From: Patescibacteria group bacterium
Lineage (GTDB): Bacteria; Patescibacteriota; Minisyncoccia; Phycocordibacterales; UBA2100
DNA length: 64,000 nucleotides
Direction of reading: 5' to 3'
Assembly: GCA_038064835.1 (NCBI GenBank)
Contig: JBBTSD010000003.1
Coordinates: 59,585 to 123,584 of the forward strand
A program made the position numbers and the translations under genes. Numbering within the stretch: the stretch's first letter is position 1; every line of letters begins with the position of its first letter. Under the pieces are notes generated by a model, which saw only the letters and a list, made by a program, of their open reading frames with translations, was not told the origin of the DNA and did no database searches. Positions 1 to 32,418 of this stretch are shown here, piece after piece.

Positions 1-840
1 TCAAAACAACATGATTCATTTTGCGAAAGAGCGGATTGATGACGGGCTCATCGACAAACACATCGATTGCAGCGCCTCGGATTTTCTCCTCACTCAGAGC
101 CTTTAGTAGCGCGTCTTCATCAATCGTTCCACCTCGTGAGCTCTGAATGATGTAGGCCGTTGGCTTCATCAGAGACAACTCCTTCTTACCCAAAAGGCCT
201 TTTGTTCGCTGAGAGAATGGGACAGACAGTGAGACAAAATCGGCTTGCCGAAGCAGTGTATGCAATGACACCCTCCGTACTCCGCGTGTTTCAAATTCAT
301 AGTGCGGTCTTCCTGGGTCATACGCTATAACTTTCATGCCAAGCAACTTTGCTTTTTCAGCCGTAAGTCCACCTATCCGCCCGAAGCCAATTGTGCCGAA
401 CACTTTACCGTAAAGTTCGGGTCCTATCCCTGCTTCCTGATCCCATACGCCGGCCCGCATATACCTATCGGACCGAGCAATGTTCCGAGCAAGTACTATC
501 ATAGAGCCGATGATAAATTCCGCATTTGCAAGTGTATTGCCCCAGGGGGAATACACCACCGGGATACCGAGTTTCCGTGCCGTATCTGTATTTACATGAT
601 TGTAACCGGCAGTAGCCGTTGCAACAACGCGCAGACACGCGTGAACTCCGTCTGTTAGAACGCAACTGCGCACAGGAGTCGCGCTCCGAACAATCAATCC
701 GTCAAAATGCTTTATTTTCTTCAACAATCCATGCTCATCTAAACCGTAATCGACAGTGACATCGCATCTCCGCTGCAAATATACTAGCGCCACATCGCTA
801 AGCGGGTTAGTCACCAGTACTCTTGCTTTCATTTCCATAT
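1..840 (-). CDS. D-isomer-specific 2-hydroxyacid dehydrogenase (NAD-binding). Partial: the C-terminus runs off the window start.
   Basis: Hand translation of the minus strand gives MEMKARVLVTNPLSD... with the GFGRIG Rossmann motif. It is not in the ORF track because there is no stop inside the window. Confidence 0.7.
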
Positions 841-889
841 ACTAGCATCATCCAGATTCAGAGAACAACCCTCTGTCGACACCCGCCAA

Positions 890-935
890 AATTAAAAACA
901 CAGCATGTGGGACTTCGTAAGTCCCACATGCTGTG
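890..935 (-). terminator. Intrinsic terminator for the lamin-tail-domain gene: a 17-bp hairpin followed by a T-run on the minus strand. It is copy A of a repeated hairpin element.
   Basis: cacagcatgtgggacttcgtaagtcccacatgctgtg is flanked by aaaaa on the plus strand, which reads TTTTT on the minus strand. Confidence 0.6.
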
Positions 936-996
936 TATGAACACTTTTGAAAACATCAGCAGCACCGACAAGTGACAAGTGATTGCGTCTTCACAA

Positions 997-1039
997 ATGA
1001 GAAGGTCAGACCTTCCCACTGTTCTTCTGACCTCTCACA
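997..1039. repeat. Palindromic element, copy A (core GAAGGTC-N-GACCTTC plus flanking ATGAGA / TCTCACAT arms).
   Basis: atgagaaggtcagaccttc ... ttctgacctctcacat. Related copies lie at 39651 and 49644. Confidence 0.6.
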
Positions 1040-1054
1040 TATCACTAGGGCATC

Positions 1055-3724
1055 CTACAATCCGTAAGTCCACTCGATAATCCGATAATTAGTATGCGGA
1101 GGTTCTGTTGACCCAGAGGTCGTTGTTCCAAATTTAAACCAGTTCATAAAGTCAGCGAGGTCGTCGCCAAAGGTGCGCGTCTCGAAAAGGGCGACAAAGA
1201 ACTGTTCTGCCAGCGTTCCAACAATTCCTCCGGTAAAGTTCTCTTCACTTACAGGATCAAGCCCCAACGAATGCGCAAAAGCCTCGGTCGAACTCCCTCG
1301 CACACCACGGAACAGCACGCCCCATCGCGATGCGCTCGGGTGAATGAAGCCAGAGAGATAGGTGCAGGCAGTTCCTGTGGGTGTGTATGAGGAGCTGGGG
1401 GTAATTGCGGTGGTCTGTGGCGAGCAGTACCAGCCGGCGCTGGTGATACCTGTGCTGTTTTCGCGCCCCGGTGTGCCGTAAATCGAATTGCCTGCGCTGT
1501 CTGAGGCGCTCTTGGTATAGCCATCATTGGTGTGCCACGAGGAGGAGAGCGTGCCGTCGGTGGTGCCCAGGGTGCGTTCCATTGATACAGTGCGTTCGGT
1601 AATACCTTTTTCTGGTGATGAATTAACACTGATGGTGAGCGATCCTGCGCACCAGCCACTGCAAGTGGCGACCGCGGGTGTCTGATCAACGAGTATGGTG
1701 CCATTCATAAGTCGGACTTCCTCGCCACTGTCTGACAAGGTTTCGAACGGATACTCGTATGAGTGGTCGGCGGTTGTGGTGTCTGCAGTTCGCTCGATTA
1801 GATAGATGTCGGTGTTGTTGTCTGCATTTGCTGGCGGCAGTGTGCCAGAGAGTGTGATGTTGGGTGTGCCGTCTGCGGTGATGATTGCTAGGTTACTTAT
1901 GTTGAGTGTGTAGGCGCTAAGATTCTTGAGCTCAATCCATTCGCCCTCAGCATTTGCTGTAGTACCTGCCCATGCTACTTCATTAAGTATGATCGGTTGG
2001 GTAATGGTGGTGAGCGTGACGGAAGTAGATGTTGCGGTGTTTCCTGCAGAGTCTCTGGCGACGAGCGTGAGTGTCGAGGTGGCGTTTGAGGAGAGGGTAA
2101 GGGTCGTGCTGGTCGCAGTGGTTGATGCCAGCGCTGTTTCTCCCACATATATCTGATGCTCTGCTGCATCACTGTCATCATTCCATGTTGCAGTGACGGT
2201 GTTTCCTGGGACAAGACAGAACAATGTTGAAAGGGATAAATCACACTCTGTGATGGTGAGTGTGGGGGTAGATGGTGGTGTGGTGTCGGGGGCTGGGGTG
2301 GGTGGTGGTTCTGGTTCTGCTGGTGGCGCAGGTGGAGTTTCTGGCGTGGGAGTTGGCTCGGGCTCAGGTGTGGGTGCGGGCGTTGTTTGACTCCCTGAAG
2401 ATGTGGGTGGTGTATAGGGACTTCCTCCACCACCACTCCCACCCCATGCGCCATCGCCTGCGGTGAATCCCGTTGGGGGTGGTGCTGGGATGGGAAGTGG
2501 TGCGACAAGGAGTGGAGCGGTGGGTACGGGGATAGATGCAACGGGGACAAGTAGTGGTGGAGTGGGAGTGTATGGTATCTCGTCTCTGGTAGTGGGCGCA
2601 GTGGCTGGGGTGGGTGTTGGGCTGGTGGTGGGATTCTCTTCCAAGACAGGGAAACCGGTGCTTGGTTGTTGTGGTCCTGATTCGGTTGCAAATGGTACTG
2701 GTGTGGTTTCGGCACCACCGTCAAGAGCTGTGATTGCTGATGCTGATTGATTTTTGGAAAGACCTGCAATGCGATTACCCAGGAGATTTACCAGGTGTCC
2801 GCCCACTGTCATGAGGGGTTCAGCGATGTTACTTCCCACACGGTGTGCGAGCGCAAGTACGGGTGCGGCGACTTGCCCTGCTGGGTCACCGACAAGGAAT
2901 GCGACCTTCTTGGCGTAGTATGCGGCGGTGCTTTCTGGTGGTGGGATGCATGGTTGGCTGGTATCACGGGTTGGTTCTGCTTCAAGTCGTGAGAGCAGGA
3001 AGGCAATGGTGCCTGCGATATCGGTCGGTCGTTCGGCAAGGTAGGTGGTGCTGATGCCGTGGCCTGCCCATTCGCTTCCCACTTCGGTGGGGTTGCGGGG
3101 GATGCTGGTGTTTGCAGGAAGTGGTTGAGGATAGCCGGATTCTTTTGCTGTTTGGCGTACTTCTGCAATGACTGCGTCGTTTGCATTGGTGAGGTACTTT
3201 CCGTGTCCTGCCACATAGCTTGCGGGGGTGGCTATGTTGTATACCGCAAGTGATTTGGCAGGCACACCTCGTTTGATGAGGTAGTCGTACAGAGCGTTTG
3301 CATAGAAAGTGCCCTGCGAGTGACCGAGTATTAGTATCTTTTGCGTCTTCACCTCTTGCGCCAGTTGTTTGGTGATGGTGAGTAGGTCGAAGTCTTCCTC
3401 GGTCTTCCCTTCTGACTCCCAGGTTTTTTGTAGCATTGACTTCAGTACATCGCCGATGCCGCCGAGGTGGGTGGGGTTGTGAGCAAGTTTTACCGGAACC
3501 AAACCGGTTGTTTGCGGGACACGAGCCCAAAGTTCTGCTTGAATTTTCTCAGCATCTACCTTGGCTTTGTCGTATTCAGTAAAAATCCCATTTATGTAGA
3601 CGACAGTCTCCTTGTTGGTACTACAAGTATCTTCTGAGGCGACAATATATAGTGGCGTCGAGAGCAGAAAAATTAATATTCCTAAAACTGTGCCACCCGC
3701 CAAGCAAGAAACTTTTCGGTTCAT
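1055..3724 (-). CDS. Large secreted multidomain protein: N-terminal signal/TM, alpha/beta-hydrolase (lipase-type GHSQG), Pro/Thr-rich linker, Ig/Fn3-like region and a lamin-tail domain (LTD).
   Basis: The 901-aa ORF contains ILILGHSQGTFYA, a PTPEPEPTPTP low-complexity linker, and LNEVAWAGTTANAEGEWIELKN (LTD signature). The start is probably at MNRKVS after an internal Met. Confidence 0.7.
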   Translation of the reverse strand: MNRKVSCLAGGTVLGILIFLLSTPLYIVASEDTCSTNKETVVYINGIFTEYDKAKVDAEKIQAELWARVPQTTGLVPVKLAHNPTHLGGIGDVLKSMLQKTWESEGKTEEDFDLLTITKQLAQEVKTQKILILGHSQGTFYANALYDYLIKRGVPAKSLAVYNIATPASYVAGHGKYLTNANDAVIAEVRQTAKESGYPQPLPANTSIPRNPTEVGSEWAGHGISTTYLAERPTDIAGTIAFLLSRLEAEPTRDTSQPCIPPPESTAAYYAKKVAFLVGDPAGQVAAPVLALAHRVGSNIAEPLMTVGGHLVNLLGNRIAGLSKNQSASAITALDGGAETTPVPFATESGPQQPSTGFPVLEENPTTSPTPTPATAPTTRDEIPYTPTPPLLVPVASIPVPTAPLLVAPLPIPAPPPTGFTAGDGAWGGSGGGGSPYTPPTSSGSQTTPAPTPEPEPTPTPETPPAPPAEPEPPPTPAPDTTPPSTPTLTITECDLSLSTLFCLVPGNTVTATWNDDSDAAEHQIYVGETALASTTATSTTLTLSSNATSTLTLVARDSAGNTATSTSVTLTTITQPIILNEVAWAGTTANAEGEWIELKNLSAYTLNISNLAIITADGTPNITLSGTLPPANADNNTDIYLIERTADTTTADHSYEYPFETLSDSGEEVRLMNGTILVDQTPAVATCSGWCAGSLTISVNSSPEKGITERTVSMERTLGTTDGTLSSSWHTNDGYTKSASDSAGNSIYGTPGRENSTGITSAGWYCSPQTTAITPSSSYTPTGTACTYLSGFIHPSASRWGVLFRGVRGSSTEAFAHSLGLDPVSEENFTGGIVGTLAEQFFVALFETRTFGDDLADFMNWFKFGTTTSGSTEPPHTNYRIIEWTYGL

Positions 3725-3731
3725 AAGCAAC

Positions 3732-4451
3732 CTAATCATCCAAACTACCGAACTGCACATCGCAGTCTAAAGGCTTGTGTCGATTGAAATTAGGGTTCCC
3801 ATTTCTTGCATATCGATTTGTATCAGAATGAGCTTTTTTGCGATCGTCATTGTTTAGAACCTGTGATTCCACTTCTCCAGTAAGAGCTTGTACTATTTTG
3901 TAATGCTCACTCCCAAGGCTGTTCCCCAAATCCATTTCTTCGCGAGTCCACTGTTGAAGTGGCTTCCTCGGAAGAAGAGTCATGTCCGTTTCATGCAACT
4001 TGTCCAGACAAGAACCTGCCCGTACATACTCATATATTGCACTGTCTAAAGTAGTTCCATTGAAAACATCAGTAAAAAAGCTCTGCAACGCCTGGGCATA
4101 CTGCAACTGCGCAGCACGGATTTTGGCAGACTCGGGGTGGCGACGCCAGATTTCCAATTCCACATCATCCCGTACGCCGTTGTTATTTACATCAATTCCC
4201 GCGACAGTCTTGTTGTTCTTTTTTGCATCTGGCGCAGGTGGCAAGTTCTTTCCCATCACCATGTCCATGGTTACTTTGCGTGCATGGATTCTCTCTACTG
4301 CTTTGGGTGCGATATACCATTTGTATACCATTATCAGTACTCCAATGCCGTACAGCACTGCACAAACAATCAAAATCCACTTGAGAACTTTTTTTGTTTT
4401 CACCCATGCACTCACCTGGACCGACGGATCCGCAGATAACAGATGATTCAT
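3732..4451 (-). CDS. Hypothetical membrane-anchored protein (single N-terminal TM).
   Basis: 239-aa ORF with a hydrophobic segment ILIVCAVLYGIGVLIMVY. No recognisable domain. Confidence 0.45.
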   Translation of the reverse strand: MNHLLSADPSVQVSAWVKTKKVLKWILIVCAVLYGIGVLIMVYKWYIAPKAVERIHARKVTMDMVMGKNLPPAPDAKKNNKTVAGIDVNNNGVRDDVELEIWRRHPESAKIRAAQLQYAQALQSFFTDVFNGTTLDSAIYEYVRAGSCLDKLHETDMTLLPRKPLQQWTREEMDLGNSLGSEHYKIVQALTGEVESQVLNNDDRKKAHSDTNRYARNGNPNFNRHKPLDCDVQFGSLDD

Positions 4452-5464: not shown

Positions 5465-5493
5465 ATTATACACCCAAAATTGGTATAAGTCAA
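5465..5493 (-). promoter_or_regulatory. Sigma70-type promoter (TTGACT-17-TATAAT) for the membrane-protein pair.
   Basis: The minus strand reads aacTTGACTtataccaattttgggtgTATAATagc. Confidence 0.55.
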
Positions 5494-5520: not shown

Positions 5521-7248
5521 TTACCCGCAGAGAATTCGTGCCAATTTAAGGTCGTCGAACGAGTACACGCCCTTGAGGGCCGCGTGGACTGGCGAGAGCT
5601 TGTCGGTGCCGTAGGCCTGGAAGGCTTCGGCAATTCGCGGAAGCGCACGGCGCAGTTGTGAAGAAATCATGCGTTCAATTTGTTGTTTGGTCACTTCGTC
5701 TTTGACATACAATGTCTGCAAATGATCAATCACCGTCCCTTCTTTTATATCCCGTGCACGGGCAATGTCTGAAATACTTTTCCCTGAGCGAATAAGTGCG
5801 AGCGTAGTTTCATGCGTGCCTTCTTTCGGAGCTGAGCCGCGCCCTTTCTTTTTCTTGGGCGCCACTCCACCCACCAACGATCCACCGGCGGAATTCAAAA
5901 ACAGACCAACAATCTCGTCGTGTTCACTTGGCTGCATCGCTGAAAATCGCGCGCGCGCATCTGCCGATTGCTGTTTGAAATTGCGTTCTTGGTGCGCCAC
6001 TTCGGGGTGCACTTCGAGTGCGCGTTCGTTGTATCCCACCACATGCAATCCATCGAGTGCGCGCACGCGAGAGAGCGCGACATAACCCTGCCCATATTCA
6101 AATGCTTTTGAGAGATCAACAACTGCTTGGTCGAGCGTCATGCCCTGGCTCTTGTGCACAGTGATTGCCCACGCAAGACGGAGTGGGAGCTGGGTAATGC
6201 GCGCCAAAATTCTGCCGGCCTCGCCCATTGTCCATTCCATAGGCACCACGGTGATAGTGCGTCCATCTATAGTGCGCACGCGCGGGGTCCCGTCAAACGC
6301 AATCTCCATAACATCGCCCACAGTACCGTTGGCAAACTGTCCGCCAATAATGTCATTCTTGGTAAACATGACGCGCGCACCCTTTTTCAGTACCAATGAT
6401 TCCGGAGAAAGACATCCGCGTTTGAGCGAAGCAACCGCCATATCCGACCCCTTGCCAGTCATGTTGTATGTGTGCGATTTCCCAGATATCGATTCAAGGC
6501 GTTCGCTGTTGATGCGATCCACATCCCGGTTGTGCGAAAAAAGTCGTGGCGCTTCTTTTGGCGCTTCAGCTTCCTTTACCACGCGCGACTTGAGCGAGTC
6601 GCGCACTTTTTCAAGTTCCTCACCTCGGCGCACGGCCTGCAACAATTCCAAAAACGAATCGTTTGCTTGGCGATGCTGTTCACTCAGGTAGCACACGATT
6701 GGATTGAGTTCGTACCATGCGCGCGAACGAAACGCGAAAGGCGATGTCTGATCTTCATCCACATCAACACCATCACCCCCGCCATAGCTGCGTCGCACCA
6801 CAGGTGGTAATTGAAAAAAATCACCCACCACCACCACCTGCATACCACCAAACGGTGTCGAGCGTTCGCGCGCCGCCCGTAATATCTGATCCAACATATC
6901 GAGCAAGGAGCCAGAGAGCATTGATATCTCGTCGATAATCAAAACATCAGCACCAGTCAATCGCCGTTTCACATTTTTATTTTCTGCGATGGATGCAACA
7001 TCATACTCGGTGAGATATTCGCGCACGCCAATACCGCTCCACGAATGCAATGTCATACCGCCGATATGTGTGGCGGCAATACCAGTCGAAGCAGTGATGG
7101 CCGGCTCAATACCATGATCCCGCAACCATGCCACATAGGTGTTTATAGTGTGCGTCTTGCCACTTCCCGGCTCGCCCGTGAGAAATACATTCGCGCCTGT
7201 GCGTAGAATCTGCAATGCTTCTTCCTGCATCATGCGGGGATTGTACAC
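5521..7248 (-). CDS. PIF1/RecD-like ATP-dependent DNA helicase with a C-terminal helix-turn-helix domain.
   Basis: Walker A GEPGSGKT, Walker B DEISML, and SF1 helicase motifs. C-terminal TLALIRSGKSISDIARARDIKEGTV resembles an HTH. Confidence 0.75.
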   Translation of the reverse strand: MYNPRMMQEEALQILRTGANVFLTGEPGSGKTHTINTYVAWLRDHGIEPAITASTGIAATHIGGMTLHSWSGIGVREYLTEYDVASIAENKNVKRRLTGADVLIIDEISMLSGSLLDMLDQILRAARERSTPFGGMQVVVVGDFFQLPPVVRRSYGGGDGVDVDEDQTSPFAFRSRAWYELNPIVCYLSEQHRQANDSFLELLQAVRRGEELEKVRDSLKSRVVKEAEAPKEAPRLFSHNRDVDRINSERLESISGKSHTYNMTGKGSDMAVASLKRGCLSPESLVLKKGARVMFTKNDIIGGQFANGTVGDVMEIAFDGTPRVRTIDGRTITVVPMEWTMGEAGRILARITQLPLRLAWAITVHKSQGMTLDQAVVDLSKAFEYGQGYVALSRVRALDGLHVVGYNERALEVHPEVAHQERNFKQQSADARARFSAMQPSEHDEIVGLFLNSAGGSLVGGVAPKKKKGRGSAPKEGTHETTLALIRSGKSISDIARARDIKEGTVIDHLQTLYVKDEVTKQQIERMISSQLRRALPRIAEAFQAYGTDKLSPVHAALKGVYSFDDLKLARILCG

Positions 7249-7328
7249 TACCTGACGCCACCTGCCTTCTTCCGCAGGTTGGTGCCCTGTGCTAGATTCA
7301 AGACAGTACGGAAACGGAGAGACGCACG

Positions 7329-7706
7329 ATGGCCAGAGTGGTCAAACAACTACCCTTTGACGGAGGCTATCTCTACGATGTGCTTACCGGCGCAAAAAGA
7401 ATCACCATTCGGCGCTACCGGCAAGGAAAGCACGATTTTAACGCCGGCGAAGTTATCTATGGTGATTTCAAAGGTGAATTAAAGATTCTCATCCGCATCA
7501 CTGCCAAGGTTGATTTGAAACCTTTTGGTTCGCTGACCAAGGCGGAAGCCCGTGAAGACGGGTTCAACGATGCGAATGATGCCTTCAACGATTTGCGTAA
7601 ATACTATCCGCAACTTAAGAAAACCGAAATGGCGGCCGTCATCCGCTTTGAAGTAGCAAAGATTGATGGCGTGCCAGCGGTGAGCTTGAGTGGCGAACGC
7701 GAGTAA
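7329..7706 (+). CDS. ASCH/PUA-like domain protein.
   Basis: 125 aa. The size and fold signature (ITIRRY...GDFKGELKILIRIT) fit an ASCH domain. Weak. Confidence 0.45.
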   Translation: MARVVKQLPFDGGYLYDVLTGAKRITIRRYRQGKHDFNAGEVIYGDFKGELKILIRITAKVDLKPFGSLTKAEAREDGFNDANDAFNDLRKYYPQLKKTEMAAVIRFEVAKIDGVPAVSLSGERE

Positions 7707-7715
7707 CTTGCTTAT

Positions 7716-7763
7716 ACAAAAAGCACCGGTCAATGACCGGTGCTTGTGTGTTTTGCTTTTTGC
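7716..7763. terminator. Bidirectional intrinsic terminator between convergent genes.
   Basis: agcaccggtca a tgaccggtgct is an 11-bp perfect stem with an A-run upstream and a T-run downstream. Confidence 0.65.
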
Positions 7764-7777
7764 ATTTTCGCGAGGAC

Positions 7778-8743
7778 TTACGAAAAATCCTTGCTTCCCA
7801 GAGTTGTGTGATCGGCCGTGGTCACATCTGCGCCATCCCCACCAGTATCACTACTAGTCGGCACTGGCACAGGATCACCGAGCGCGGCAGCACCAAGTGC
7901 TGTCGCCATGGGAGACGGATCGCCTACAACAACATGTGGGACAGGTTCAGCGTCATCAAAGCCTGCCGTCACACCCGCACCACCAGCTTCGCCGCCACGG
8001 CCATAGAATACTTCTTGGGCCTGTGTCGGATGATTCGAGTGGCCGGCCTGTAAGAGCTGGCTCATCAGCCAGACATCGAGCAAGCTCAGGCCAGTTGAGT
8101 CACTGCTTCGCACGGGCGCCTGCCGTTGCGCTTGCACGCGCGCCGACGATTGGCGGAGCGCTGTGGCAATCTGCGGATCAAGTAAGTAGTTGGGCCGCGC
8201 TTGGCGCATCCGTGAGAGTTTCTCGAGTCCAGCCACCTGTTTTTTCAGATCGACTTCTGCGCGACCAAGCGCCTGCAATTCGGTGCGATATTTCTTGATA
8301 TCGGCTTCAATCAAACTGGCCAGATGAAGCCAGTCAGGTTTGATCGGAAGCAAGCCAAGGTAGGAGGTAAGTTTTACACGAAGCATGCTCATTGGCAGAG
8401 CGCGCGTATTGGCCCGACGCCATGCCACACCACCGCCAGTCATCCAAACCCAAAATGGGGCATTGACTTTCGCTTCCGCCACCAAGTCTTGCACATCGCT
8501 TCGTGCACCAAACTCGGGCACTTGGTTGCGTAATTTTTTGAGCGTACCTCGCTCAACATCGGGAAGCAGGCTTTGTGCCCTGGTGCGATAGTAATCACCG
8601 AGTCGCTTTTCGTCGATCCGGATTAAACCTTCTAACTCGCGACGCCGACCTGCGATTTCACGCAAGCGCGCCTCGAGCGCACCCCGCACAGTTGCCACAT
8701 CAGCATTGCTGATGTCCCCGGTAGGGACAGCCTTTCTCATCAT
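7778..8743 (-). CDS. Hypothetical protein (coiled-coil middle, Ala/Gly-rich tail), translationally coupled to the upstream glycosyltransferase-like gene.
   Basis: An ATGA overlap puts its start over the stop of the 8740..9792 gene. No recognisable domain. Confidence 0.5.
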   Translation of the reverse strand: MMRKAVPTGDISNADVATVRGALEARLREIAGRRRELEGLIRIDEKRLGDYYRTRAQSLLPDVERGTLKKLRNQVPEFGARSDVQDLVAEAKVNAPFWVWMTGGGVAWRRANTRALPMSMLRVKLTSYLGLLPIKPDWLHLASLIEADIKKYRTELQALGRAEVDLKKQVAGLEKLSRMRQARPNYLLDPQIATALRQSSARVQAQRQAPVRSSDSTGLSLLDVWLMSQLLQAGHSNHPTQAQEVFYGRGGEAGGAGVTAGFDDAEPVPHVVVGDPSPMATALGAAALGDPVPVPTSSDTGGDGADVTTADHTTLGSKDFS

Positions 8744-9792
8744 GCTATTCTCCTGTTTTTCTGTTTGTTGCTACTGACAGTATCGCCATCTTCCTGCCGC
8801 GATTTGAAGTACTCGTCGAAGTACGCGACAAGTTTGGGTTTCTCGTGTCTGACGCGAGGTGCCCACTCAATTGGCTTACCCGGCTCAATCATGAGATCCG
8901 TGTTCGGGTTGAATCCCGAATCGGTTATCTTCCACATCCGATTGAAGTAGTCACGCTTTGCCAAGGAGCCATGCCACAAGTGGACAATGGCACCGGGTAC
9001 TACGGCTAACTTCCCTTGAACGAGCTCATAGAAAGCAGAGCCCCACCGGCGGAAATGGTCGATCTGTGTGGAATCCTGCTTGAGCGCATTCTCGACACAA
9101 AAGCCCACATGCCCGTAGCTAGCGTGTGCCATAAAGTGATCGGCACTTCCCGATACCGCCGCTTCGTAGAGGCCGACCGCATCGAAAATTTCCCGCCGCA
9201 TTGCCCATGCATAGCCAGTGTGTCCATGCGCATCATAACGCTGCGTGTTCAGAACTGATCGATCCTTGCCAGTAACAGCCGCAAACGAGGTGACGATATC
9301 TGCTGCCTCAATCATGAGATTGCCTTGTTCTAGGCGAACACACTTCTCGAACAATTGGACCACGGCGTGCTCTTTCAAAAGCTCGACCGTTTTTGTGGCC
9401 CATCGCTCGTTGAGAAAAATCACATCGCAGTCAACCCACGCAACCGATTGTGCACTAGCTGGAAGCCAGGATGCGGCAAGATTCAGCAAGCGTTCCTTTT
9501 GCCACAAGAGTGACGCGCTCCGCAGGCGAATGGGGTGACAGCTATCCGGAAGCTCGAATGGCTCATCGCCAAATGCGCACTCGACAGTGAGCAAGGGAAT
9601 CCCTGCTCGTTTGAGCGACTCTGCGAATAGGTCGAAATTTGCTCGACGGGTTTTGTACTTACACGGATTGTAGTAGACCGTGATAACCCAAAGCCCTTCG
9701 GCATAGCGTGCCTTGGGAACATCATCCATATCGAAGCGTTGCCACGGCGACAAGTATCGCTCGTGCGCCAATTCTGCCAGTGGAGTCACCAT
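8740..9792 (-). CDS. Putative nucleotide-diphospho-sugar transferase (GT-A fold, DxD motif).
   Basis: VITVYYNPCKY N-terminal strand and WVDCDVIF (DxD) suggest a GT2-like fold. Assigned by eye only. Confidence 0.4.
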   Translation of the reverse strand: MVTPLAELAHERYLSPWQRFDMDDVPKARYAEGLWVITVYYNPCKYKTRRANFDLFAESLKRAGIPLLTVECAFGDEPFELPDSCHPIRLRSASLLWQKERLLNLAASWLPASAQSVAWVDCDVIFLNERWATKTVELLKEHAVVQLFEKCVRLEQGNLMIEAADIVTSFAAVTGKDRSVLNTQRYDAHGHTGYAWAMRREIFDAVGLYEAAVSGSADHFMAHASYGHVGFCVENALKQDSTQIDHFRRWGSAFYELVQGKLAVVPGAIVHLWHGSLAKRDYFNRMWKITDSGFNPNTDLMIEPGKPIEWAPRVRHEKPKLVAYFDEYFKSRQEDGDTVSSNKQKNRRIA

Positions 9793-24893: not shown

Positions 24894-26213
24894 CTATACC
24901 TTGTTCGAGAAAAAACCTTGCGAGAACAACAGCCCTTTTTTAATGAGATCGATGCGGAAATTTTCGTTCGCCCCGTGAATGTTTGAATCTCGATTCGCAA
25001 GACCAATTGCGAGAACGGGTACCTTGAGGATGCGTTGTAACTCTCCGATAATCGGAATACTTGCCCCTTCAAAATTGCGCATGGGGGCGTGTTTGTAGAC
25101 ACGCCTGAGTATCTTCTCGGCACAGGCATACAGTGGCGTGTTCATATCAACAAGTATTGGATCACCATGCATTTCAACAGTGGTCGTCAGCTTGGCCCAG
25201 GGCGCTACTTGTTTCTTGAGGTGCGCAAGAACCTTTCCCACAACCACTTTCGTCTTCTGGCCTGGTGCAATACGCACATTCAATCGTGCCTCGGCAGTAT
25301 GCGGAATTATGTTTTGGAAACCTTCGCCGGTATAACCACCCTGAATACCTGAACATTCGATAGACGGGAAAAATCCTGTCTGTACTGCAAAGCTTGTACC
25401 GCGTAGCGTACGCAATGCTTTTACCCCCGCAACTTTTTTTGCGACCGCATCGTTAATGACCAGACCTGCATCTTTCTTTTGTGATGCGGTGACCTTGGCA
25501 ATACCATCATACATACCTGGCACAGTGATACGGTTTTCTTTGTCATGCAAAGTCCCCACTATCCGCGCGAGTTCGTGCAGTGGATTGGGTAACGCACCAC
25601 CAAAAATACCTGAGTGCACATCGTTCGGTGCAGTGCTTAATTGGATGCGTATATTTGCAGCGGCACGAAATGTTGCTTCAAACATCGGCTTCTCGCCGGC
25701 AAGCTCTCCGTCTGAAACCAGCACAGCATCGCACGCAAGCTCTTTCTTGTGTGCCGTAAGCAATGTCGTGATATCCGGACTCCCTGACTCTTCATCGCCC
25801 TCTATGAGAAAAAGAATGTTGTACGCAAGCTCCTTCCTTTCAATAAGGTCGAGGATACTGGCCACATGCACCAGGAACTGACCTTTATTATCCATGATGC
25901 CTCGCGCATACAAGCGGCCTTTCTCCTCACGCACTGTAAATGCGTCGCCCTGCCATTCAGGTTGTTCTGCCGGCTGCACATCGTAGTGGCCGTATACCAT
26001 GATGGTAGGGGCCTTCTCATCAACAGTATACCGAGCGTAGACAACGGGGTTTGAATTTTTACCTTCCAGAAAACCCGCAGTAAACCCTTTCTCGGTAAAT
26101 AAGGTGCGTAGATAGGTAGCTGCTTTGAGGCACTCGTCTTTATACACAGCACTTGTCGAAATGGATTTAAACGCCACTAAGTCGCGAACCAATGTTTCGT
26201 ATAATGTATTCAT
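24894..26213 (-). CDS. M20-family metallopeptidase/dipeptidase.
   Basis: MVYGHYDVQPAEQPEWQGDAF and IEGDEESGS. Confidence 0.85.
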   Translation of the reverse strand: MNTLYETLVRDLVAFKSISTSAVYKDECLKAATYLRTLFTEKGFTAGFLEGKNSNPVVYARYTVDEKAPTIMVYGHYDVQPAEQPEWQGDAFTVREEKGRLYARGIMDNKGQFLVHVASILDLIERKELAYNILFLIEGDEESGSPDITTLLTAHKKELACDAVLVSDGELAGEKPMFEATFRAAANIRIQLSTAPNDVHSGIFGGALPNPLHELARIVGTLHDKENRITVPGMYDGIAKVTASQKKDAGLVINDAVAKKVAGVKALRTLRGTSFAVQTGFFPSIECSGIQGGYTGEGFQNIIPHTAEARLNVRIAPGQKTKVVVGKVLAHLKKQVAPWAKLTTTVEMHGDPILVDMNTPLYACAEKILRRVYKHAPMRNFEGASIPIIGELQRILKVPVLAIGLANRDSNIHGANENFRIDLIKKGLLFSQGFFSNKV

Positions 26214-26261
26214 CGGTGCATCGTACAGGTAAAGTAACTGAGGTGCAAAAATCTACTGCCA

Positions 26262-26717
26262 CTACGATTCGTACGCTTTCTGTAATCCGGCAATATCAAT
26301 CTTTTTCATCCCCAGCATCGCTTGCATCACCTTGCCAGATTTCACCGGATCAAGATCGCTCAAAAGCTCGCTTAAAGTCTTGGGTATGATTTGCCACGAC
26401 AATCCATATTTGTCTTTGAGCCACCCGCACTGGCCTTCTGCACCACCGTCGGCGATAAGCTTTGCCCACAGATCATCAACTTCTGCCTGATCTGCACAAT
26501 CGACAAACAAGGAAATTGCCTCGGTAAATTTGTACATAGGCCCGCCGTTAAGTGCATACATGGTGAGCCCAGCAATCTCGGCCGAGACCCACATAGCCTT
26601 GTCGCCAGGCCCGGGTGTTACATGGGTAATTTTTGAGTCCTTAAACACCGAAACATAGAAGTTCATTGCTTCTTCTGCCTGTCCGTCGAACCAAAGAAAT
26701 GGAGTAATTTTTTGCAT
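26262..26717 (-). CDS. VOC-superfamily protein, PhnB-like (3-demethylubiquinone-9 methyltransferase-like domain).
   Basis: ITPFLWFDGQAEEAMNFYVSVF. Confidence 0.7.
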   Translation of the reverse strand: MQKITPFLWFDGQAEEAMNFYVSVFKDSKITHVTPGPGDKAMWVSAEIAGLTMYALNGGPMYKFTEAISLFVDCADQAEVDDLWAKLIADGGAEGQCGWLKDKYGLSWQIIPKTLSELLSDLDPVKSGKVMQAMLGMKKIDIAGLQKAYES

Positions 26718-26728
26718 AGTTTTTGTTG

Positions 26729-27139
26729 TTATTCTTGTGGTACTGCTGTCCGTGGCGCCGGTTGCAACATACTTGCGCGATTTCCTTCAGTATCAGTAAA
26801 CGACACATACTGACCGACTCCGGGGATCTCGACCGGCTCACCAATCACAATACCCCCAGCGTCTGCGACTTTTTCCATGTGCTTTTGTATGTCATCCACC
26901 GCAATCACAATCGACGGAGCGGTGTTGTCTGCATTCTTCTGGAAAAACCCACCATTGATGTGACCGCGCTCCTTGGGAACACCGGTGCCGTCACACTCAC
27001 TGGTCATGGCTGTCACATAATTACCCATCTCTGGCCCCATCTGATTGAGCACCCATCCGAATGTTTTTGCGTAAAAGTCAGACATGCGTTTGGTGTCCTC
27101 GGCTGGCATTTCAAAATGTACAACGGGATTCATTTTCAT
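26729..27139 (-). CDS. Glyoxalase/bleomycin-resistance (VOC) family protein.
   Basis: 136 aa with VHFEMPAED...FYAKTFGW. Confidence 0.75.
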   Translation of the reverse strand: MKMNPVVHFEMPAEDTKRMSDFYAKTFGWVLNQMGPEMGNYVTAMTSECDGTGVPKERGHINGGFFQKNADNTAPSIVIAVDDIQKHMEKVADAGGIVIGEPVEIPGVGQYVSFTDTEGNRASMLQPAPRTAVPQE

Positions 27140-27177
27140 AATGTGTAGTGAGTATTTATTAATTCCTGCAGTGTACT

Positions 27178-27747
27178 CTACTTCTTCATGTTCGTAACCT
27201 TGTGCACCTTTCCTGTTTTGTCATAGGTGGTCCACTCACCCACCTGCTTGCCTTTTTTGAATGATCCCGACCGCATTCGCACACCGTCCTTTCGGAACCA
27301 CTCCCAATACCCTTCCATGACTCCATTTGCCACTTTGCCTTTTGCCCAGATGCTTCCGTCCTTGTGATAGTGCACGAAGCCTTTTTTGCCACCACCTCTC
27401 TTGCTGAGATTTTCCTGGGCACGGAATTTTACAACTTTGGTGATAAGAGCAAGTGGCAACGGCATACCAAATGGAAACTGTACCGACCCTTTTGCACCTT
27501 TATACACAGAGAACTCTTTTCTGAAGGTACTTTTCCCAGATGAAGCTGGATAGAAGCCGATATGGCGATTGAATGCGCCAAAATGCACCAGATTGCCGTT
27601 CAGAACAAAGGTCGGAATGCCGTACTTCATAGCTTCTTCAGCTTTGGGTGCTGCTTTATGTATAGTTGCGCGCATCTGCTGTAAAAGTGTCTGCACCTCG
27701 GCAGGATACCCAGAGATATACGAATCGATTGTTTTAGCGGTTTTCAT
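27178..27747 (-). CDS. DUF1801 (YdhG-like) domain fused to MORN-type repeats.
   Basis: N-terminal DUF1801-like fold. C-terminal GYWEWFRKDGVRMRSGSFKKGKQVGEWTTY. Confidence 0.55.
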   Translation of the reverse strand: MKTAKTIDSYISGYPAEVQTLLQQMRATIHKAAPKAEEAMKYGIPTFVLNGNLVHFGAFNRHIGFYPASSGKSTFRKEFSVYKGAKGSVQFPFGMPLPLALITKVVKFRAQENLSKRGGGKKGFVHYHKDGSIWAKGKVANGVMEGYWEWFRKDGVRMRSGSFKKGKQVGEWTTYDKTGKVHKVTNMKK

Positions 27748-27787
27748 ATTAGGCTTCCCACACTAGTATTCACACCCTAGAGGGGTA

Positions 27788-28225
27788 TTAGGTTTTGCTG
27801 GTGCAATTAAACATCCATTGCACACCAAATTTGTCGGTACAGGATCCATAGTAGTCGCCCCAAAACATTTCCTGCAATTCCATTTCTGTGTTGCCACCTG
27901 CAGAGAGTGCCTTGAACAACCGCTCGGTTTCGACACGCGTGTCTGGTTCGAGATTGATGTAAATATTATTTCCAAAATTAACTTTGAATCCCAGTGATTC
28001 AGGAGCGTCTGTGCCCATCAGCATCAAGCCACCGAGTATCGGCAGAGCAATGTGCATGACCAGGTTTTTGTCTTCCTCTGCAAGGGGTGGCGCACCCTCT
28101 GGTCGTGGTGCCGCATCCATTCGATTAATTCCACCGACAAACTCGCCGCCAAAAATGAGCTGGTAGTAATTAAAAGCTTCCTCAGTCGAGCGTGGGAAAT
28201 TTAAATAGATACTTGTTTTTGCCAT
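27788..28225 (-). CDS. VOC/PhnB-like family protein.
   Basis: YLNFPRSTEEAFNYY...MHIALPILGG. Confidence 0.7.
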   Translation of the reverse strand: MAKTSIYLNFPRSTEEAFNYYQLIFGGEFVGGINRMDAAPRPEGAPPLAEEDKNLVMHIALPILGGLMLMGTDAPESLGFKVNFGNNIYINLEPDTRVETERLFKALSAGGNTEMELQEMFWGDYYGSCTDKFGVQWMFNCTSKT

Positions 28226-28227
28226 AC

Positions 28228-28680
28228 TTACTTTTCAGCTAGCTCTTTTAATGCGTGAAGGGCTTTTGGCCACATGTCGTTAAACATGGCGACAAACGAC
28301 TCTTCTGTATCCGTATCTATCTGCAGGTCGGTGCCGCCATCTACTGCAGTAAAGGTGTAGTTCTCGTGTGCACCTACCCACCCTTTCACCTTTTCGCTCG
28401 TGGTGTCCTCGACATCATTCTCGATAAGTCCCAGGTGCTCAACAGAAATAAATTCGTGTAGCCTATTTTCCCTGATACAAGAAACAACGCCGCCGTTTCC
28501 GCTCCCATCGGGATTCGGTCCGATAAAACGGATTTCAGATCCTTGTTCCCAGCTCCCCCTGTAATGCGAACCGGGACAAAACGCCGCGGTCCATTGCCGA
28601 TATGTTGCATCCGCAAGCATGGTGTCCCACACCTTTTCCACGGGCGCGTTGATGTGTACTGAAAAATGAAGTGTTTGCAT
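28228..28680 (-). CDS. SRPBCC (AHSA1/polyketide-cyclase-like) family protein.
   Basis: FSVHINAPVEKVWDTM. Confidence 0.75.
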   Translation of the reverse strand: MQTLHFSVHINAPVEKVWDTMLADATYRQWTAAFCPGSHYRGSWEQGSEIRFIGPNPDGSGNGGVVSCIRENRLHEFISVEHLGLIENDVEDTTSEKVKGWVGAHENYTFTAVDGGTDLQIDTDTEESFVAMFNDMWPKALHALKELAEK

Positions 28681-28743
28681 GAATTAATTGTAGCAAAGCA
28701 GATGAAGAACCCCTAACGACACCCTCATGTCTTCACCTCGTAT

Positions 28744-29049
28744 CTAGTGCGAATACATGTGTGACCTCACTACAACAAGCTCTGCTACTAGGTCTGGATT
28801 TGTCAGATGAGTAAATCGCGGCACCATTTTGCCGTCTTTTTCGACGGTCCCCATAAACATGTCTAATGGTCGTGCATTGTAATCAGCAGGCGCCATCCAT
28901 TCGTTTTTGTACAAAGGCCGATACAAGACCATAAGCATCTTGTCTTCTGTATTTCTCCCCACACCAATCACCTCATACATGTAGTTGTACGGGCTACTGT
29001 CAGGATCGTGTTTATAGTGCCTGTAAAAACCTTTTTCGGGGATGTTCAT
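28744..29049 (-). CDS. DUF1653-like small protein.
   Basis: GFYRHYKHDP...YEVIGV. Confidence 0.55.
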   Translation of the reverse strand: MNIPEKGFYRHYKHDPDSSPYNYMYEVIGVGRNTEDKMLMVLYRPLYKNEWMAPADYNARPLDMFMGTVEKDGKMVPRFTHLTNPDLVAELVVVRSHMYSH

Positions 29050-29223
29050 GCTCGTTATATTACGATGCCCAATTTTTCATGTCTGGCTCTCGGCGCACTT
29101 CCTTGGGATAGCTAGCCATATAGGTTTTAATGGTTTCCATGCACATATTCTACATCGCTTGATCAATAAAGGGTATCGCCCATGACAAGCTGCCGGTGAT
29201 AGGATACTTTTGGACACTGCTCT

Positions 29224-29252
29224 TTGACATGTAGTTAAGCACAATGTATAAT
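29224..29252 (+). promoter_or_regulatory. Perfect-consensus sigma70 promoter (TTGACA-17-TATAAT).
   Basis: cTTGACAtgtagttaagcacaatgTATAATc. Confidence 0.7.
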
Positions 29253-29281
29253 CTTCTCGGATCCACTGCGTGAGGTAGGTT

Positions 29282-29524
29282 ATGAAAACGAATCACCGCC
29301 GGGGATTTGTAGCAAAACCCCACAAAGACCAAGCCATGTTCGCAACAAGAGCGACTGCGCCAATCGCCAACAAAAGCTTCTGTACATCGATCGGAAATGA
29401 CTTTAGCAAAGGTAATCGTGGCATGGCTAAAGCCAAGCGTGGCGCAAAGAAGTTCGTGCGCTCGCGCATTCGCTTCCACGACAACACCACAACAAAAAGA
29501 CTGGCCTCAGGTACGGTCGAATGA
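29282..29524 (+). CDS. Small, highly basic 80-aa protein of unknown function.
   Basis: Consensus promoter, then a GAGGT RBS, then the ORF, then a strong terminator. The minus-strand ORF that overlaps it was rejected. Confidence 0.55.
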   Translation: MKTNHRRGFVAKPHKDQAMFATRATAPIANKSFCTSIGNDFSKGNRGMAKAKRGAKKFVRSRIRFHDNTTTKRLASGTVE

Positions 29525-29536
29525 CCAGTACCTGCG

Positions 29537-29572
29537 CCGATCGCATCGAATCTCGATGCGATCTTTTCTTTT
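29537..29572 (+). terminator. Intrinsic terminator.
   Basis: gatcgcatcga atc tcgatgcgatc followed by ttttctttt. Confidence 0.8.
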
Positions 29573-29698
29573 ACAAAAACTCAACTGACCTCCGTCTCAG
29601 GTTGTTCCACTGGCAAAACGAAAGTGAAATGTGAAGCGGACAGCAGAGGGGCCATCGCGACCCCGATTAACTGGCTGTCTGGGACGACGTCGGAACTA

Positions 29699-30103
29699 TT
29701 ATGCGGCGTAGTATGCCTCATGAGCTACCTTGGGTTCTTCTAAACGATTATAGTCGATGGTAATTTCGACTCCCTTGCCTATATCCTCGCTCGCGTACCA
29801 TTTGAAATCTTTTTTATGCACGGCATTCGGAGTGGCTGCGTGATCGAGATACCATCCAATAGCCATGACTCCGAAATCAGGCGGACAGACCATCATTCCG
29901 TTCTCCCTGTCTAAACAATAGCCATGAAAAATACCGGGAACATCATCCTTATTCATTAGTCGTGTATTGTCCGCCAACCCGCCCTCTTCGTCACCGAACA
30001 GTCGCAAGTGCGTTCCTGATCTAATCGCATGTGTCGTAAAAACTCCCATTCCCCATTCTGTAGGCTTGAGGACGAAAGAAAATTCGTTTGTAAAATCTTG
30101 CAT
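29699..30103 (-). CDS. Putative SET-domain protein.
   Basis: WYASEDIGKGVEITIDYN and GWYLDHAATPN resemble the C-terminal motifs of a SET domain. Weak. Confidence 0.4.
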   Translation of the reverse strand: MQDFTNEFSFVLKPTEWGMGVFTTHAIRSGTHLRLFGDEEGGLADNTRLMNKDDVPGIFHGYCLDRENGMMVCPPDFGVMAIGWYLDHAATPNAVHKKDFKWYASEDIGKGVEITIDYNRLEEPKVAHEAYYAA

Positions 30104-30155: not shown

Positions 30156-30230
30156 CGCTGCCAGACTTGGAATCGAACCAAGATATACAGCTTCAAAGGC
30201 TGCTGTCCTACCGTTAGACGATCTGGCAGC
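30156..30230 (-). tRNA. tRNA-Gln (anticodon UUG).
   Basis: Cloverleaf read by hand. Anticodon loop CUUUGAA, T-loop GGTTCGATTCC. Confidence 0.8.
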
Positions 30231-30802: not shown

Positions 30803-31849
30803 CTATTCTCCGCTCACTGTTGCATCAATAATCGCAAGCTCGAGTGGCAGATGTGGCAAAGCTGCGAAGTGCATGGTGTCGTATGCCTCAAGAAGCAGTC
30901 GCAGAGTGGCCGTCGTTATTTTTTGATTTTTATCTGCGGCTATTTTTTTCAATGCCTCAAATTCATCTGGCAACAATTCTGCACCCAGTTGTTCTGCCAA
31001 ATCCGGTGCGTGAGCAAGCAGTAATACTATCCGTATGCGCTCGAGCACGAGGCGCACCAACATGCGCATATCCAGATTGGCACTGACTGCCGATTCGACT
31101 GCAGCCAGTGCGTCAGTGCGTTTGTTGTAGGCAAGTGCTTCGGTGAGTGAACGAATGAGGTGGTGCCGTGGTGCGCCCGTAACCAATTCAACTTCTGCCA
31201 CCTCGACTTTTTTGTCTTTTGAAAGGGTCAGCACTTTTTGCAAAATACCCAATCCGTCGCGAAACGATCCTTCGGCAAGCATGGCAATCAAATCAGCCGC
31301 GGATTGCTCAAGTGCATAGCCTTCTTTCTTTGCAACATCAGCAATCATTTTTGCAAGCACTGCGCGCGTTGGTTGCTTGAATGCATATACTTCGCAACGC
31401 GACTGAATGGTGTCAGGTACCTTTTCAATATCAGTGGTCGCCATCACGAAAATAACATGGGCCGGTGGCTCTTCGAGCGTCTTGAGAAACGCATTCCAGG
31501 CACTTTTGGAAAGCATGTGTGCTTCATCGAGAATGTACATTTTGTACGGCGACTCAAAAGGCATCACTTGCACGGCCTCGCGCAATTCGCGGATATTGTC
31601 GACGCCCGTGTGTGACGCGGCATCCATTTCATACAAATCTTTGTCTGAGACACCAATCTCGCGTGCAAGGATACGCGCGATTGAAGTCTTGCCAATCCCC
31701 CGCCCACCGACAAACAAATAAGCATGGGCGATTTTTTTGTTTTTGATTGCGGCTTTGAGCACATCCACCACATGATCTTGCCCGTATACATCAGTAAAAG
31801 TTTGCGGACGATGCGATCGATACAAAGCGTGATGTGCAGTCTTTTGCAT
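30803..31849 (-). CDS. dnaX: DNA polymerase III subunit gamma/tau (short form).
   Basis: HAYLFVGGRGIGKTSIARILA (AAA+). The start is set at MQKTAHHALYRSHRP. Confidence 0.9.
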   Translation of the reverse strand: MQKTAHHALYRSHRPQTFTDVYGQDHVVDVLKAAIKNKKIAHAYLFVGGRGIGKTSIARILAREIGVSDKDLYEMDAASHTGVDNIRELREAVQVMPFESPYKMYILDEAHMLSKSAWNAFLKTLEEPPAHVIFVMATTDIEKVPDTIQSRCEVYAFKQPTRAVLAKMIADVAKKEGYALEQSAADLIAMLAEGSFRDGLGILQKVLTLSKDKKVEVAEVELVTGAPRHHLIRSLTEALAYNKRTDALAAVESAVSANLDMRMLVRLVLERIRIVLLLAHAPDLAEQLGAELLPDEFEALKKIAADKNQKITTATLRLLLEAYDTMHFAALPHLPLELAIIDATVSGE

Positions 31850-31911
31850 GTTGGGATGATAGCATACCTTGACTATACTTATGAAAAAGCCCGGAAATTC
31901 CGGGCGTTTGT

Positions 31912-32418
31912 TTAGTCTCTCGCTGATCTGCACCAATCCAGAAGTACCTTATGCTTGCGCATGGTGTGGATTGATTGGAGAACTATCTGTGTACCTGGCA
32001 TCAGGTTGGACATGCCACATGCCTTCTCGTAGCTCATCCACGCAAAAGTGTCTGCTTCCCAGTCGAGCACTACCTGCGCATGGCGCACTCTGACAAACAC
32101 AGGAACCGTAAGCCATGTTTTCTGGTTCGATACATCCTCGAGCAAGAGCGGCCGGTCAATCTGAATGTCGTCCACTGCCGGAGCAGAGTAGCCAAGCTCC
32201 TCACCAATCTCCTCAAGAGCCTTTTCGGTAACAGACTTGCCATCGTCCAAAAAGCCGGTGATACCGCTCCAATAGCCTGGATACGAGGGATGATTCTTGC
32301 TTCGTTGTACCAGCAGAAGGCCGAGCTCGCTTTCAACGATGCAGTGCACCACAGGGCACACGCGCGCATGGGTAAAATCGATTTGCCCTGCCCGCGGGGT
32401 AAATGGGGTTGCCGTCAT
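31912..32418 (-). CDS. NUDIX hydrolase.
   Basis: Nudix box GGFLDDGKSVTEKALEEIGEELG. Confidence 0.75.
   Translation of the reverse strand: MTATPFTPRAGQIDFTHARVCPVVHCIVESELGLLLVQRSKNHPSYPGYWSGITGFLDDGKSVTEKALEEIGEELGYSAPAVDDIQIDRPLLLEDVSNQKTWLTVPVFVRVRHAQVVLDWEADTFAWMSYEKACGMSNLMPGTQIVLQSIHTMRKHKVLLDWCRSARD

Follow-up and report, generated by a model that had tools for sequence, protein, structure and literature searches.

A self-contained gene cassette in a Patescibacteria genome encodes a small, highly basic protein of an undescribed family shared with large phages

Morons of lambdoid and HK97-like phages consist of a single open reading frame (ORF) with its own sigma-70 promoter and intrinsic terminator, situated between unrelated genes. 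The cassette described here is found at positions 29224-29572 of a 64,000-nt stretch of contig JBBTSD010000003.1 from a Patescibacteria group bacterium (the whole stretch is referred to as the window), and it has the same organization. The protein family encoded by the cassette also resembles morons in that its homologues are scattered over phage genomes and bacterial islands with no synteny. Unlike phage morons, the window cassette is not part of a recognizable prophage; its neighbors are VOC, DUF1653 and SET-domain genes, tRNA-Gln and dnaX, and their composition matches that of the cassette. The term moron is a label of gene organization and not of function.

Several groups of small basic proteins can be compared with the product of the cassette. 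The ribosome-associated proteins bS21 (including phage copies), Sra/bS22, bTHX and RMF are similar to it in size (25-80 aa), in having a pI >10 and in the combination of disordered basic segments with a helix. They likewise look highly expressed, and some are phage-encoded near phage translation genes. However, the product has no sequence-model or fold match to these proteins, and its family is present in only ~0.01% of species genomes and is thus not core ribosomal. ArfA, BrfA and ArfT are also small, basic, sporadic and encoded by stand-alone genes with a hairpin at the 3' end of the ORF, as is the window protein. Their mRNAs are non-stop, with a hairpin or terminator before the stop codon, whereas in the window the UGA is before the terminator and the first hairpin merely encloses the stop. 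No sequence similarity was detected between these proteins and the window protein, whose C-terminus is conserved up to its end. HU/IHF, Hc1-like and phage histone-like proteins share with the product a small size, basic character, probable abundance and stand-alone genes, and they are found on phages as well. The arginine-rich-motif RNA-binding peptides of the lambda N type are comparable in their Arg-rich helix (RSRxRFH in the family) and flexible basic N-terminus, but only one of 26 family members has a faint, non-significant match to an N-like PHROG (E 0.26), and no nut-like site or antitermination context was seen.

The coordinates of the cassette and of its surroundings are listed in Table 1. 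An initial annotation described a promoter, a GAGGT ribosome binding site, an 80-aa ORF and an 11-bp-stem terminator with a T-run, and all of these are present as described. The promoter is the sole exact match to TTGACA-17-TATAAT found by a promoter scan of the 64-kb window. Two window sites have one mismatch or less relative to the consensus, compared with 0.16 expected from shuffled sequences; the second is on the minus strand and differs at one position of the -35 hexamer. The regional scan overall shows no enrichment (13 sites compared with 11.8 expected), and the cassette promoter alone is exceptional.

Table 1. Positions of features in and around the cassette (window numbering)
Feature	Position	Strand	Details
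Sigma-70-type promoter	29224..29252	+	-35 TTGACA 29224-29229, 17-nt spacer, -10 TATAAT 29247-29252; score 12/12
Predicted 5' UTR, ~23 nt	29259..29281	+	start inferred ~7 nt past the -10 element
Shine-Dalgarno GAGGT	29272-29276	+	5 nt upstream of ATG 29282; read from the sequence
CDS, 80 aa and TGA stop	29282..29524	+	listed ORF
Bulged hairpin, 11 + 3 bp	29503..29538	+	encloses the last codons and the UGA stop 29522-29524; RNA fold of 29500-29575
Intrinsic terminator	29539..29572	+	perfect 11-bp stem, 3-nt loop (29539-29563), then T-run TTTTCTTTT; scan and fold
Antisense ORF, 109 aa	29150-29479	-	ORF list
Run of small accessory genes	24894-30103	-	M20 peptidase, three VOC/glyoxalase-type, DUF1801+MORN, AHSA1/SRPBCC, DUF1653, SET-domain
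DUF1653 gene	28744-29049	-	flanks the cassette
SET-domain protein gene	29699-30103	-	flanks the cassette
tRNA-Gln(UUG)	30157-30228		after the minus-strand run; 630 nt from the cassette
dnaX as listed	30803-31936	-	TTG-initiated
Palindromic hairpin	31889-31905		7 bp, GC-rich, T-runs on both strands
NUDIX gene	31912-32418
Second promoter-like site	5465-5493	-	TTGACT-17-TATAAT; score 11/12

The cassette is on the plus strand and both flanking genes are on the minus strand; it must therefore be transcribed on its own. The stop codon precedes the terminator stem by 15 nt, and there are six GC pairs among the 11 bp of the stem. When the bulged hairpin and the terminator are folded jointly, the two display a delta G of -39.1 kcal/mol (z = -7.9). 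The bulged hairpin is probably a 3'-end stabilizer; this tandem-hairpin 3' end has no obvious conservation in the related loci L004 or L077. The succession of promoter, ribosome binding site, one ORF and terminator shows, at the level of sequence signals, that 29224-29572 is an independent transcription unit, whose transcription is probably constitutive and high-level.

The same design is common to close relatives. In loci L004, L077, L078 and L079, too, the gene stands alone and has a TTGAC-type promoter of its own ~50-60 nt upstream, and the genes of the last three likewise sit between oppositely oriented genes. The TTTGACAT of the window promoter is kept at the same alignment position in L004 and L077, and GGAGG or GAGG is found at the same ribosome binding site position in L004, L077 and L079. 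T-rich tracts are present downstream in all four relatives; a hairpin with a T-run is detected in L004 only, and the 3' arm of the terminator with its T-run, GATGCGATCTT(T/C)T, is common to this locus and the window. In a wider comparison, several homologous loci show a TTGACA-like hexamer 51-62 nt upstream of the start codon, with a promoter of 11/12 in phage locus L033. Of the 27 loci searched, none has the general-stress (EcfG) promoter of Alphaproteobacteria, GGAAC-N15-18-(C/G)GTT, upstream of the homologue. The view of the locus as a compact self-contained unit is in agreement with these data, the cassette being monocistronic and protein-coding.

The CDS overlaps a 109-aa antisense ORF, and the initial annotation favored the sense frame. 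Pairwise comparison of 31 distinct loci (GC 0.33-0.69) shows differences of 0.279, 0.211 and 0.620 at codon positions 1, 2 and 3, i.e., third positions are approximately three times more variable than second positions. The dN/dS ratio is 0.05-0.22 where dS is unsaturated, dS often being saturated, and nearly all of the homologous loci examined have an open sense frame, at GC values from 0.33 to 0.69. This pattern shows that 29282-29524 encodes a true protein under strong purifying selection, and it bears out the preference for the sense ORF. Many homologous loci also have an open antisense frame, which is apparently "conserved" in 34 loci; it stays open because the sense gene avoids the codons TTA, CTA and TCA. 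The antisense ORF was rejected as a gene. It is a codon-aligned shadow, its third position being the sense first position, which varies by only 0.28.

A non-coding or dual-function small RNA as the product of the transcript, or the antisense ORF as the real gene, has almost no likelihood. The ~310-nt transcript does fold better than shuffled controls (z = -3.9), and an antisense frame that is open across many homologous loci might point to the antisense ORF as the gene. However, most of the fold signal is supplied by the two 3' hairpins, and a search of Rfam 15 gave nothing, either across the window at the gathering threshold or, even at E<=10, within 29150-29650. The highest variation (0.62) is at the third codon position of the sense frame, which remains open in nearly all loci despite the range in GC. 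The codon-position pattern effectively refutes both the non-coding and the antisense readings. A homologue search gave 147 homologues at E<=0.01; the absence of homologues and the small RNA alternative, both of which had been considered at the outset, were not borne out.

The 80-aa product (~9 kDa) has a net charge of +15 and a pI of 11.7 and has exactly the sequence of NCBI entry AAB421_02240, a hypothetical protein of a Patescibacteria MAG. The family is characterized by the motifs MKTNHRRGF ... IGNDFxxGxRGMAKAxRGAKKFVRSRxRFH(D/E)N and is uniformly basic, with a median net charge of +10, a median pI of 10.7 and a minimum pI of 9.6. The N-terminal motif M-K/T-x-N-H-x-R (M-K-T-N-H-x-R-x-F) is present in the window protein, which starts with MKTNHRRGF. 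N4, H5 and R7 show no variation in alignment A1; in A3, which comprises 62 sequences, N4 and R7 are retained at >=90%. This motif is followed by a variable linker, which is expanded in a long form of the protein (110-140 aa) that begins with MTD(I/V)NHRRKN. Between the linker and the helix is the segment (D)KSM..WG....LSDK..GASIGNDF, and the helix itself has the motif G-x-R-G-M-A-K-A-x-R-G-A-K-K-F-V-R-S-R-x-R-F-H-E-N. The C-terminal signature of the family, GxRG...GAKK(F/Y)(V/I)(R/N)(S/T)RxR(F/H)H(E/D)N, is found in the window protein as GNRGMAKAKRGAKKFVRSRIRFHDN. Within the helix K56 is invariant, G54 and R64 are conserved at >=97%, and the near-invariant basic residues are R46, K56, K57, R60, R62 and R64.

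Structure modeling predicts a compact core. The AlphaFold2 model of the window protein (pLDDT 86.5) displays a beta-hairpin at residues 21-36 and a helix at residues 44-77 (34 residues). An independent AlphaFold model of a long-form member has the same hairpin-helix core with pLDDT >90, and its N-terminal extension is disordered. The predicted architecture is thus a flexible basic tail that carries the near-invariant N-H-x-R, followed by a beta-hairpin and a 34-residue helix. The 80-aa sequence lacks both a hydrophobic segment and a signal peptide.

Comparison with databases reveals a sizable family that carries no name. A profile search of 1.84 billion representatives yields ~225 clusters at 50% identity, and a broader profile yields 576 clusters at 90% identity, all of them unnamed and none with a Pfam domain. 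The window protein has zero matches at E<=10 in Pfam-A, NCBIfam, PHROGs and PADLOC. When 26 alignment members were compared with curated libraries, only scattered matches with E>=0.009 were found, and no library family was matched by more than three of the 26. A profile search of solved-structure sequences gives only an insignificant match to a p400 helix. There is no sequence or fold match to a ribosomal protein, hibernation factor, RNA chaperone or nucleoid protein; specifically, Sra/bS22, RMF, HPF and bS21 show no match to the family models or as solved ribosome-bound chains, and HU/IHF and other nucleoid-associated proteins show no fold or profile match, nor is there an HTH, RHH, H-NS or Alba signature. 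A literature search on the motifs, on small basic proteins in phage tRNA clusters and on Rhizobium phages found nothing on the protein. With no match in curated families, solved-structure sequences or the literature, the family is uncharacterized, and its fold, a simple one, is unassigned. The earlier statement that the ORF has no recognizable family is therefore correct for curated libraries, but not in the wider sense, as a conserved unnamed family does exist. As judged from these searches, both family and fold are undescribed and the product is not an orphan. It has no paralogue within the window.

The family is rare and its distribution is patchy. Carriers were found among 18 of 185,579 species-representative genomes (~0.01%) from at least five phyla, and the family as a whole spans Patescibacteria, Alphaproteobacteria, Variovorax, cyanobacterial relatives, Actinobacteria and large phages. 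The carriers include Bosea, Mesorhizobium, Sphingomonas, Phenylobacterium, Rhizobiaceae, Stellaceae and Hyphomicrobiales, together with Variovorax, Saccharimonadia, Obscuribacterales, Sericytochromatia and one Acidimicrobiaceae MAG. Ten viral contigs in IMG/VR carry the family, six of which are 130-340 kb, and homologues are also present in cultured Rhizobium phages of ~154-208 kb. The homologue in phage RHph_Y65 (Kleczkowskaviridae) is hypothetical protein gp139, located in a long block of small hypothetical genes. PLSDB plasmids have no match to the family. In a 259-kb viral contig (L036) a TnpB/Cas12f-like gene (OrfB_IS605 and TNB domains, positions 1587-3230) is situated ~1.6 kb upstream of the family gene.

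Two bacterial loci reveal the gene in foreign DNA. In Mesorhizobium sp. SP-1A (contig2, 398070-408264; L026) the gene is surrounded by a PcfJ-like protein gene and an AAA ATPase gene in a 10-kb segment with a GC of 0.49. The Mesorhizobium genome is ~62% GC. This difference and the PcfJ-like gene identify the segment as a foreign DNA island, and the gene in Pseudosulfitobacter is also in a foreign island. The distribution shows, from the sequences of the carriers, that the family is rare and horizontally mobile between large phages and bacteria. Neither the link to phages nor this mobility could be seen in the initial annotation. In its behavior the cassette appears similar to a phage moron; it would be an accessory gene that drives its own expression and is exchanged between the genomes of phages and bacteria.

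In the window the plus-strand cassette is surrounded by the run of small minus-strand accessory genes (Table 1). There is no break in GC or GC3 at the cassette, no direct repeat of the tRNA-Gln 3' end of the attachment-site type in the window and no phage hallmark gene among the window neighbors. The cassette is therefore considered to be resident and ameliorated, and not part of a recent prophage. An island integrated at tRNA-Gln was rejected by the lack of a 3'-end repeat and of a GC/GC3 break. Co-transfer with tRNA-Gln was also rejected; the tRNAs of the window and of loci L038 and L043 show no particular similarity to one another, with 46-60 of 72 positions in common. The neighboring dnaX gene is listed with a TTG start. 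A palindromic hairpin is found inside its listed N-terminus, just downstream of the NUDIX gene, and the true start of dnaX is probably an internal ATG (MQKTAHH...). The short DnaX, 377 aa, fits a Patescibacteria genome.

Gene neighborhoods of the homologues provide indirect clues to function. An all-against-all ORF comparison of 81 loci shows no recurrent neighbor outside closely related phages. Synteny in relatives, which had been proposed as a check, is not found: even the closest relatives (66-75% identity) differ in their neighbors. Given the lack of a conserved gene partner, the protein most likely acts without a dedicated one. There is, however, a recurrent proximity to tRNA genes. A tRNA gene is located within 1 kb in nine of 57 distinct loci and within 2.5 kb in 12 of 57, where the background of ~3-5% of random loci is a rough estimate and not a measured control. 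In six loci (L033, L040, L053, L057, L059 and L074) the gene is in or beside a phage tRNA array of 5-11 tRNAs. A divergent family copy lies between tRNA-Phe and tRNA-Ala in L040 (4573-6385). In L033, a 242-kb viral contig, the tRNA array (region 6051-9107) is ~0.85 kb downstream of the family gene, and immediately upstream (575-3928) are genes for a CCA-adding-enzyme homologue, an SPFH/Band 7 protein and a GatB/YqeY-domain protein. RtcB is 1.5 kb from gp139 in RHph_Y65, an RNA ligase gene is near the family gene in L011, two class-II aminoacyl-tRNA synthetase genes flank it in L083, and alaS and an ABC-F gene are close to it in L079 and L081, respectively.

The product probably binds RNA or DNA, as suggested by its composition and conserved positions. 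The favored explanation is that a mobile, moron-like cassette encodes a nucleic-acid-binding protein with a preference for RNA of the translation apparatus; this is quite possible but is put forward tentatively, as it falls short of probable. The self-expressed cassette would yield an abundant accessory protein, which would bind a nucleic acid common to all these hosts, the preferred target being translation-apparatus RNA (tRNA or ribosome). The basic helix and the flexible N-H-x-R tail may clamp the RNA backbone, as the extensions of small ribosomal proteins do, and the bound RNA would be stabilized, protected or modulated. RNA is preferred because of the neighborhood evidence and because Arg dominates the conserved positions. 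Family identity is 45-75% across phyla and synonymous sites are saturated, which implies that the binding partner is itself nearly universal. The initial proposal of nucleoid or ribosome association is a reasonable hypothesis and would fit a uniformly basic family with a conserved basic helix.

A more specific form of this explanation is doubtful. The family may represent an unrecognized tRNA- or ribosome-binding factor of the translation/RNA-repair toolkit of large phages, repeatedly captured by bacteria as a self-expressed cassette. Its companions in the toolkit would be the tRNA arrays, CCA-adding enzyme, RtcB, RNA ligase and aminoacyl-tRNA synthetases. In bacteria, including the genome-reduced Patescibacteria, it might protect or tune translation, e.g., against tRNA-targeting toxins or stress.

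Several observations weigh against the favored explanation. No match to known ribosomal, hibernation, RNA chaperone or nucleoid proteins was found, and a core component of translation would have to be far more widespread than this family. Small accessory genes accumulate in the tRNA regions of phages, and the closeness to tRNA genes may be due simply to this, or to the integration of islands at tRNAs. High basic charge alone does not discriminate between RNA, DNA and acidic-protein partners, and other neighbors point elsewhere, namely NAD/ADP-ribose genes (L032, L011 and a NADAR fusion) and the protease genes clpX and lon (L010 and L014).

The NAD/ADP-ribose neighborhood constitutes a second theme, which is weaker than the RNA/translation theme. 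In L032 a NadR-like gene overlaps the 3' end of the family gene, and L011 also has Macro and YAcAr genes. An association with SLOG/YAcAr genes was rejected, as it is present in two phage loci only. In L042 the family domain is fused to a NADAR domain (protein P0259, 889-1737; PF08719, E 1.3e-40). This is a single case in a 2.3-kb phage-like contig, where the fusion gene follows an endonuclease VII gene and a suppressor-type tRNA(CUA), and it could be an assembly or frameshift artifact.

NADAR enzymes remove ADP-ribose from guanine bases in DNA, and the fusion would suit a DNA-targeting module. It is one of the observations compatible with a nucleoid-associated or histone-like protein, or a transcription regulator, that is carried by phages and islands and would use its helix and tail to coat or bend DNA. 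The charge is also compatible with such a protein, as is the basic helix with its conserved positions, phages often carry their own DNA-coating proteins, and the gene is stand-alone and looks strongly expressed, as nucleoid-protein genes do. This explanation is nevertheless unlikely. The family lacks an HTH, RHH, HU/IHF, H-NS or Alba signature or fold, its conserved basic positions are mostly Arg, which is commoner in RNA binders, and the fusion is confined to the one short metagenomic contig mentioned above.

The position near protease genes is found in two alphaproteobacterial MAG contigs, in both of which the family gene is between clpX and lon. In L010 (6001-6237) it starts 2 nt past the end of clpX and is ahead of lon and hupB, and in L014 (5001-5240) it directly follows clpX; this spacing suggests co-transcription with the protease genes. 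The same position is compatible with a further explanation, a phage-derived counter-defense, host-takeover or exclusion factor that binds a host or phage protein (e.g., one that blocks a nuclease, protease or ADP-ribosyltransferase) and that became a beneficial moron in bacteria. The moron-like anatomy of the cassette and the foreign islands in Mesorhizobium and Pseudosulfitobacter are in accord with it, as is the location in early/accessory regions of large phages, where the neighbors (tRNA, RNA-repair, NAD-salvage, Macro and NADAR genes) are those typical of counter-defense. PADLOC shows no match, however. Arms-race genes usually evolve fast, whereas the identity across phyla of this family points to a very conserved target, and in the reduced genome of a member of the Patescibacteria, harm would be expected from a takeover protein whose promoter is of the consensus constitutive type. 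A counter-defense role is accordingly judged distinctly unlikely.

A small toxic or antimicrobial basic peptide, e.g., a toxin with a cognate antitoxin or a peptide that poisons membranes or ribosomes, is very improbable. The product is small, very basic and found on mobile DNA, as such a peptide might be, but it has no adjacent partner ORF or conserved neighbor, and the missing hydrophobic segment and signal peptide also speak against a toxin. In addition, the consensus promoter comes with no visible repression logic, and a well-folded conserved domain is predicted in place of a simple amphipathic peptide. The hallmarks of toxin-antitoxin systems (an adjacent antitoxin, an antisense RNA or a type I hydrophobic helix) are not present at the locus, the antisense ORF being a shadow.

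Homologues are carried by Rhizobium phages RHph_Y65 and RHph_TM30, Mesorhizobium sp. SP-1A, Bosea sp. CS1GBMeth4, Sphingomonas rustica and Variovorax sp. WDL1, all of which are cultured; the question of function is therefore directly testable. Should the favored explanation fail, the family would be one more conserved hypothetical small protein and a candidate for a new Pfam/DUF entry. The kind of gene is itself ordinary, i.e., a moron-like gene for a small basic protein, and the connection with phages and tRNA arrays is the new information. If the explanation is correct, the cassette would stand for small nucleic-acid-binding proteins that are new both in fold and in family and that shuttle between large phages and distant bacteria, with a degree of conservation usually confined to proteins in contact with universal machinery. 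The "auxiliary translation / RNA-repair" genes of large phages, a poorly understood set, would gain a further member, and a function would be assigned to one of a small number of orphan genes that look strongly expressed in a Patescibacteria genome.
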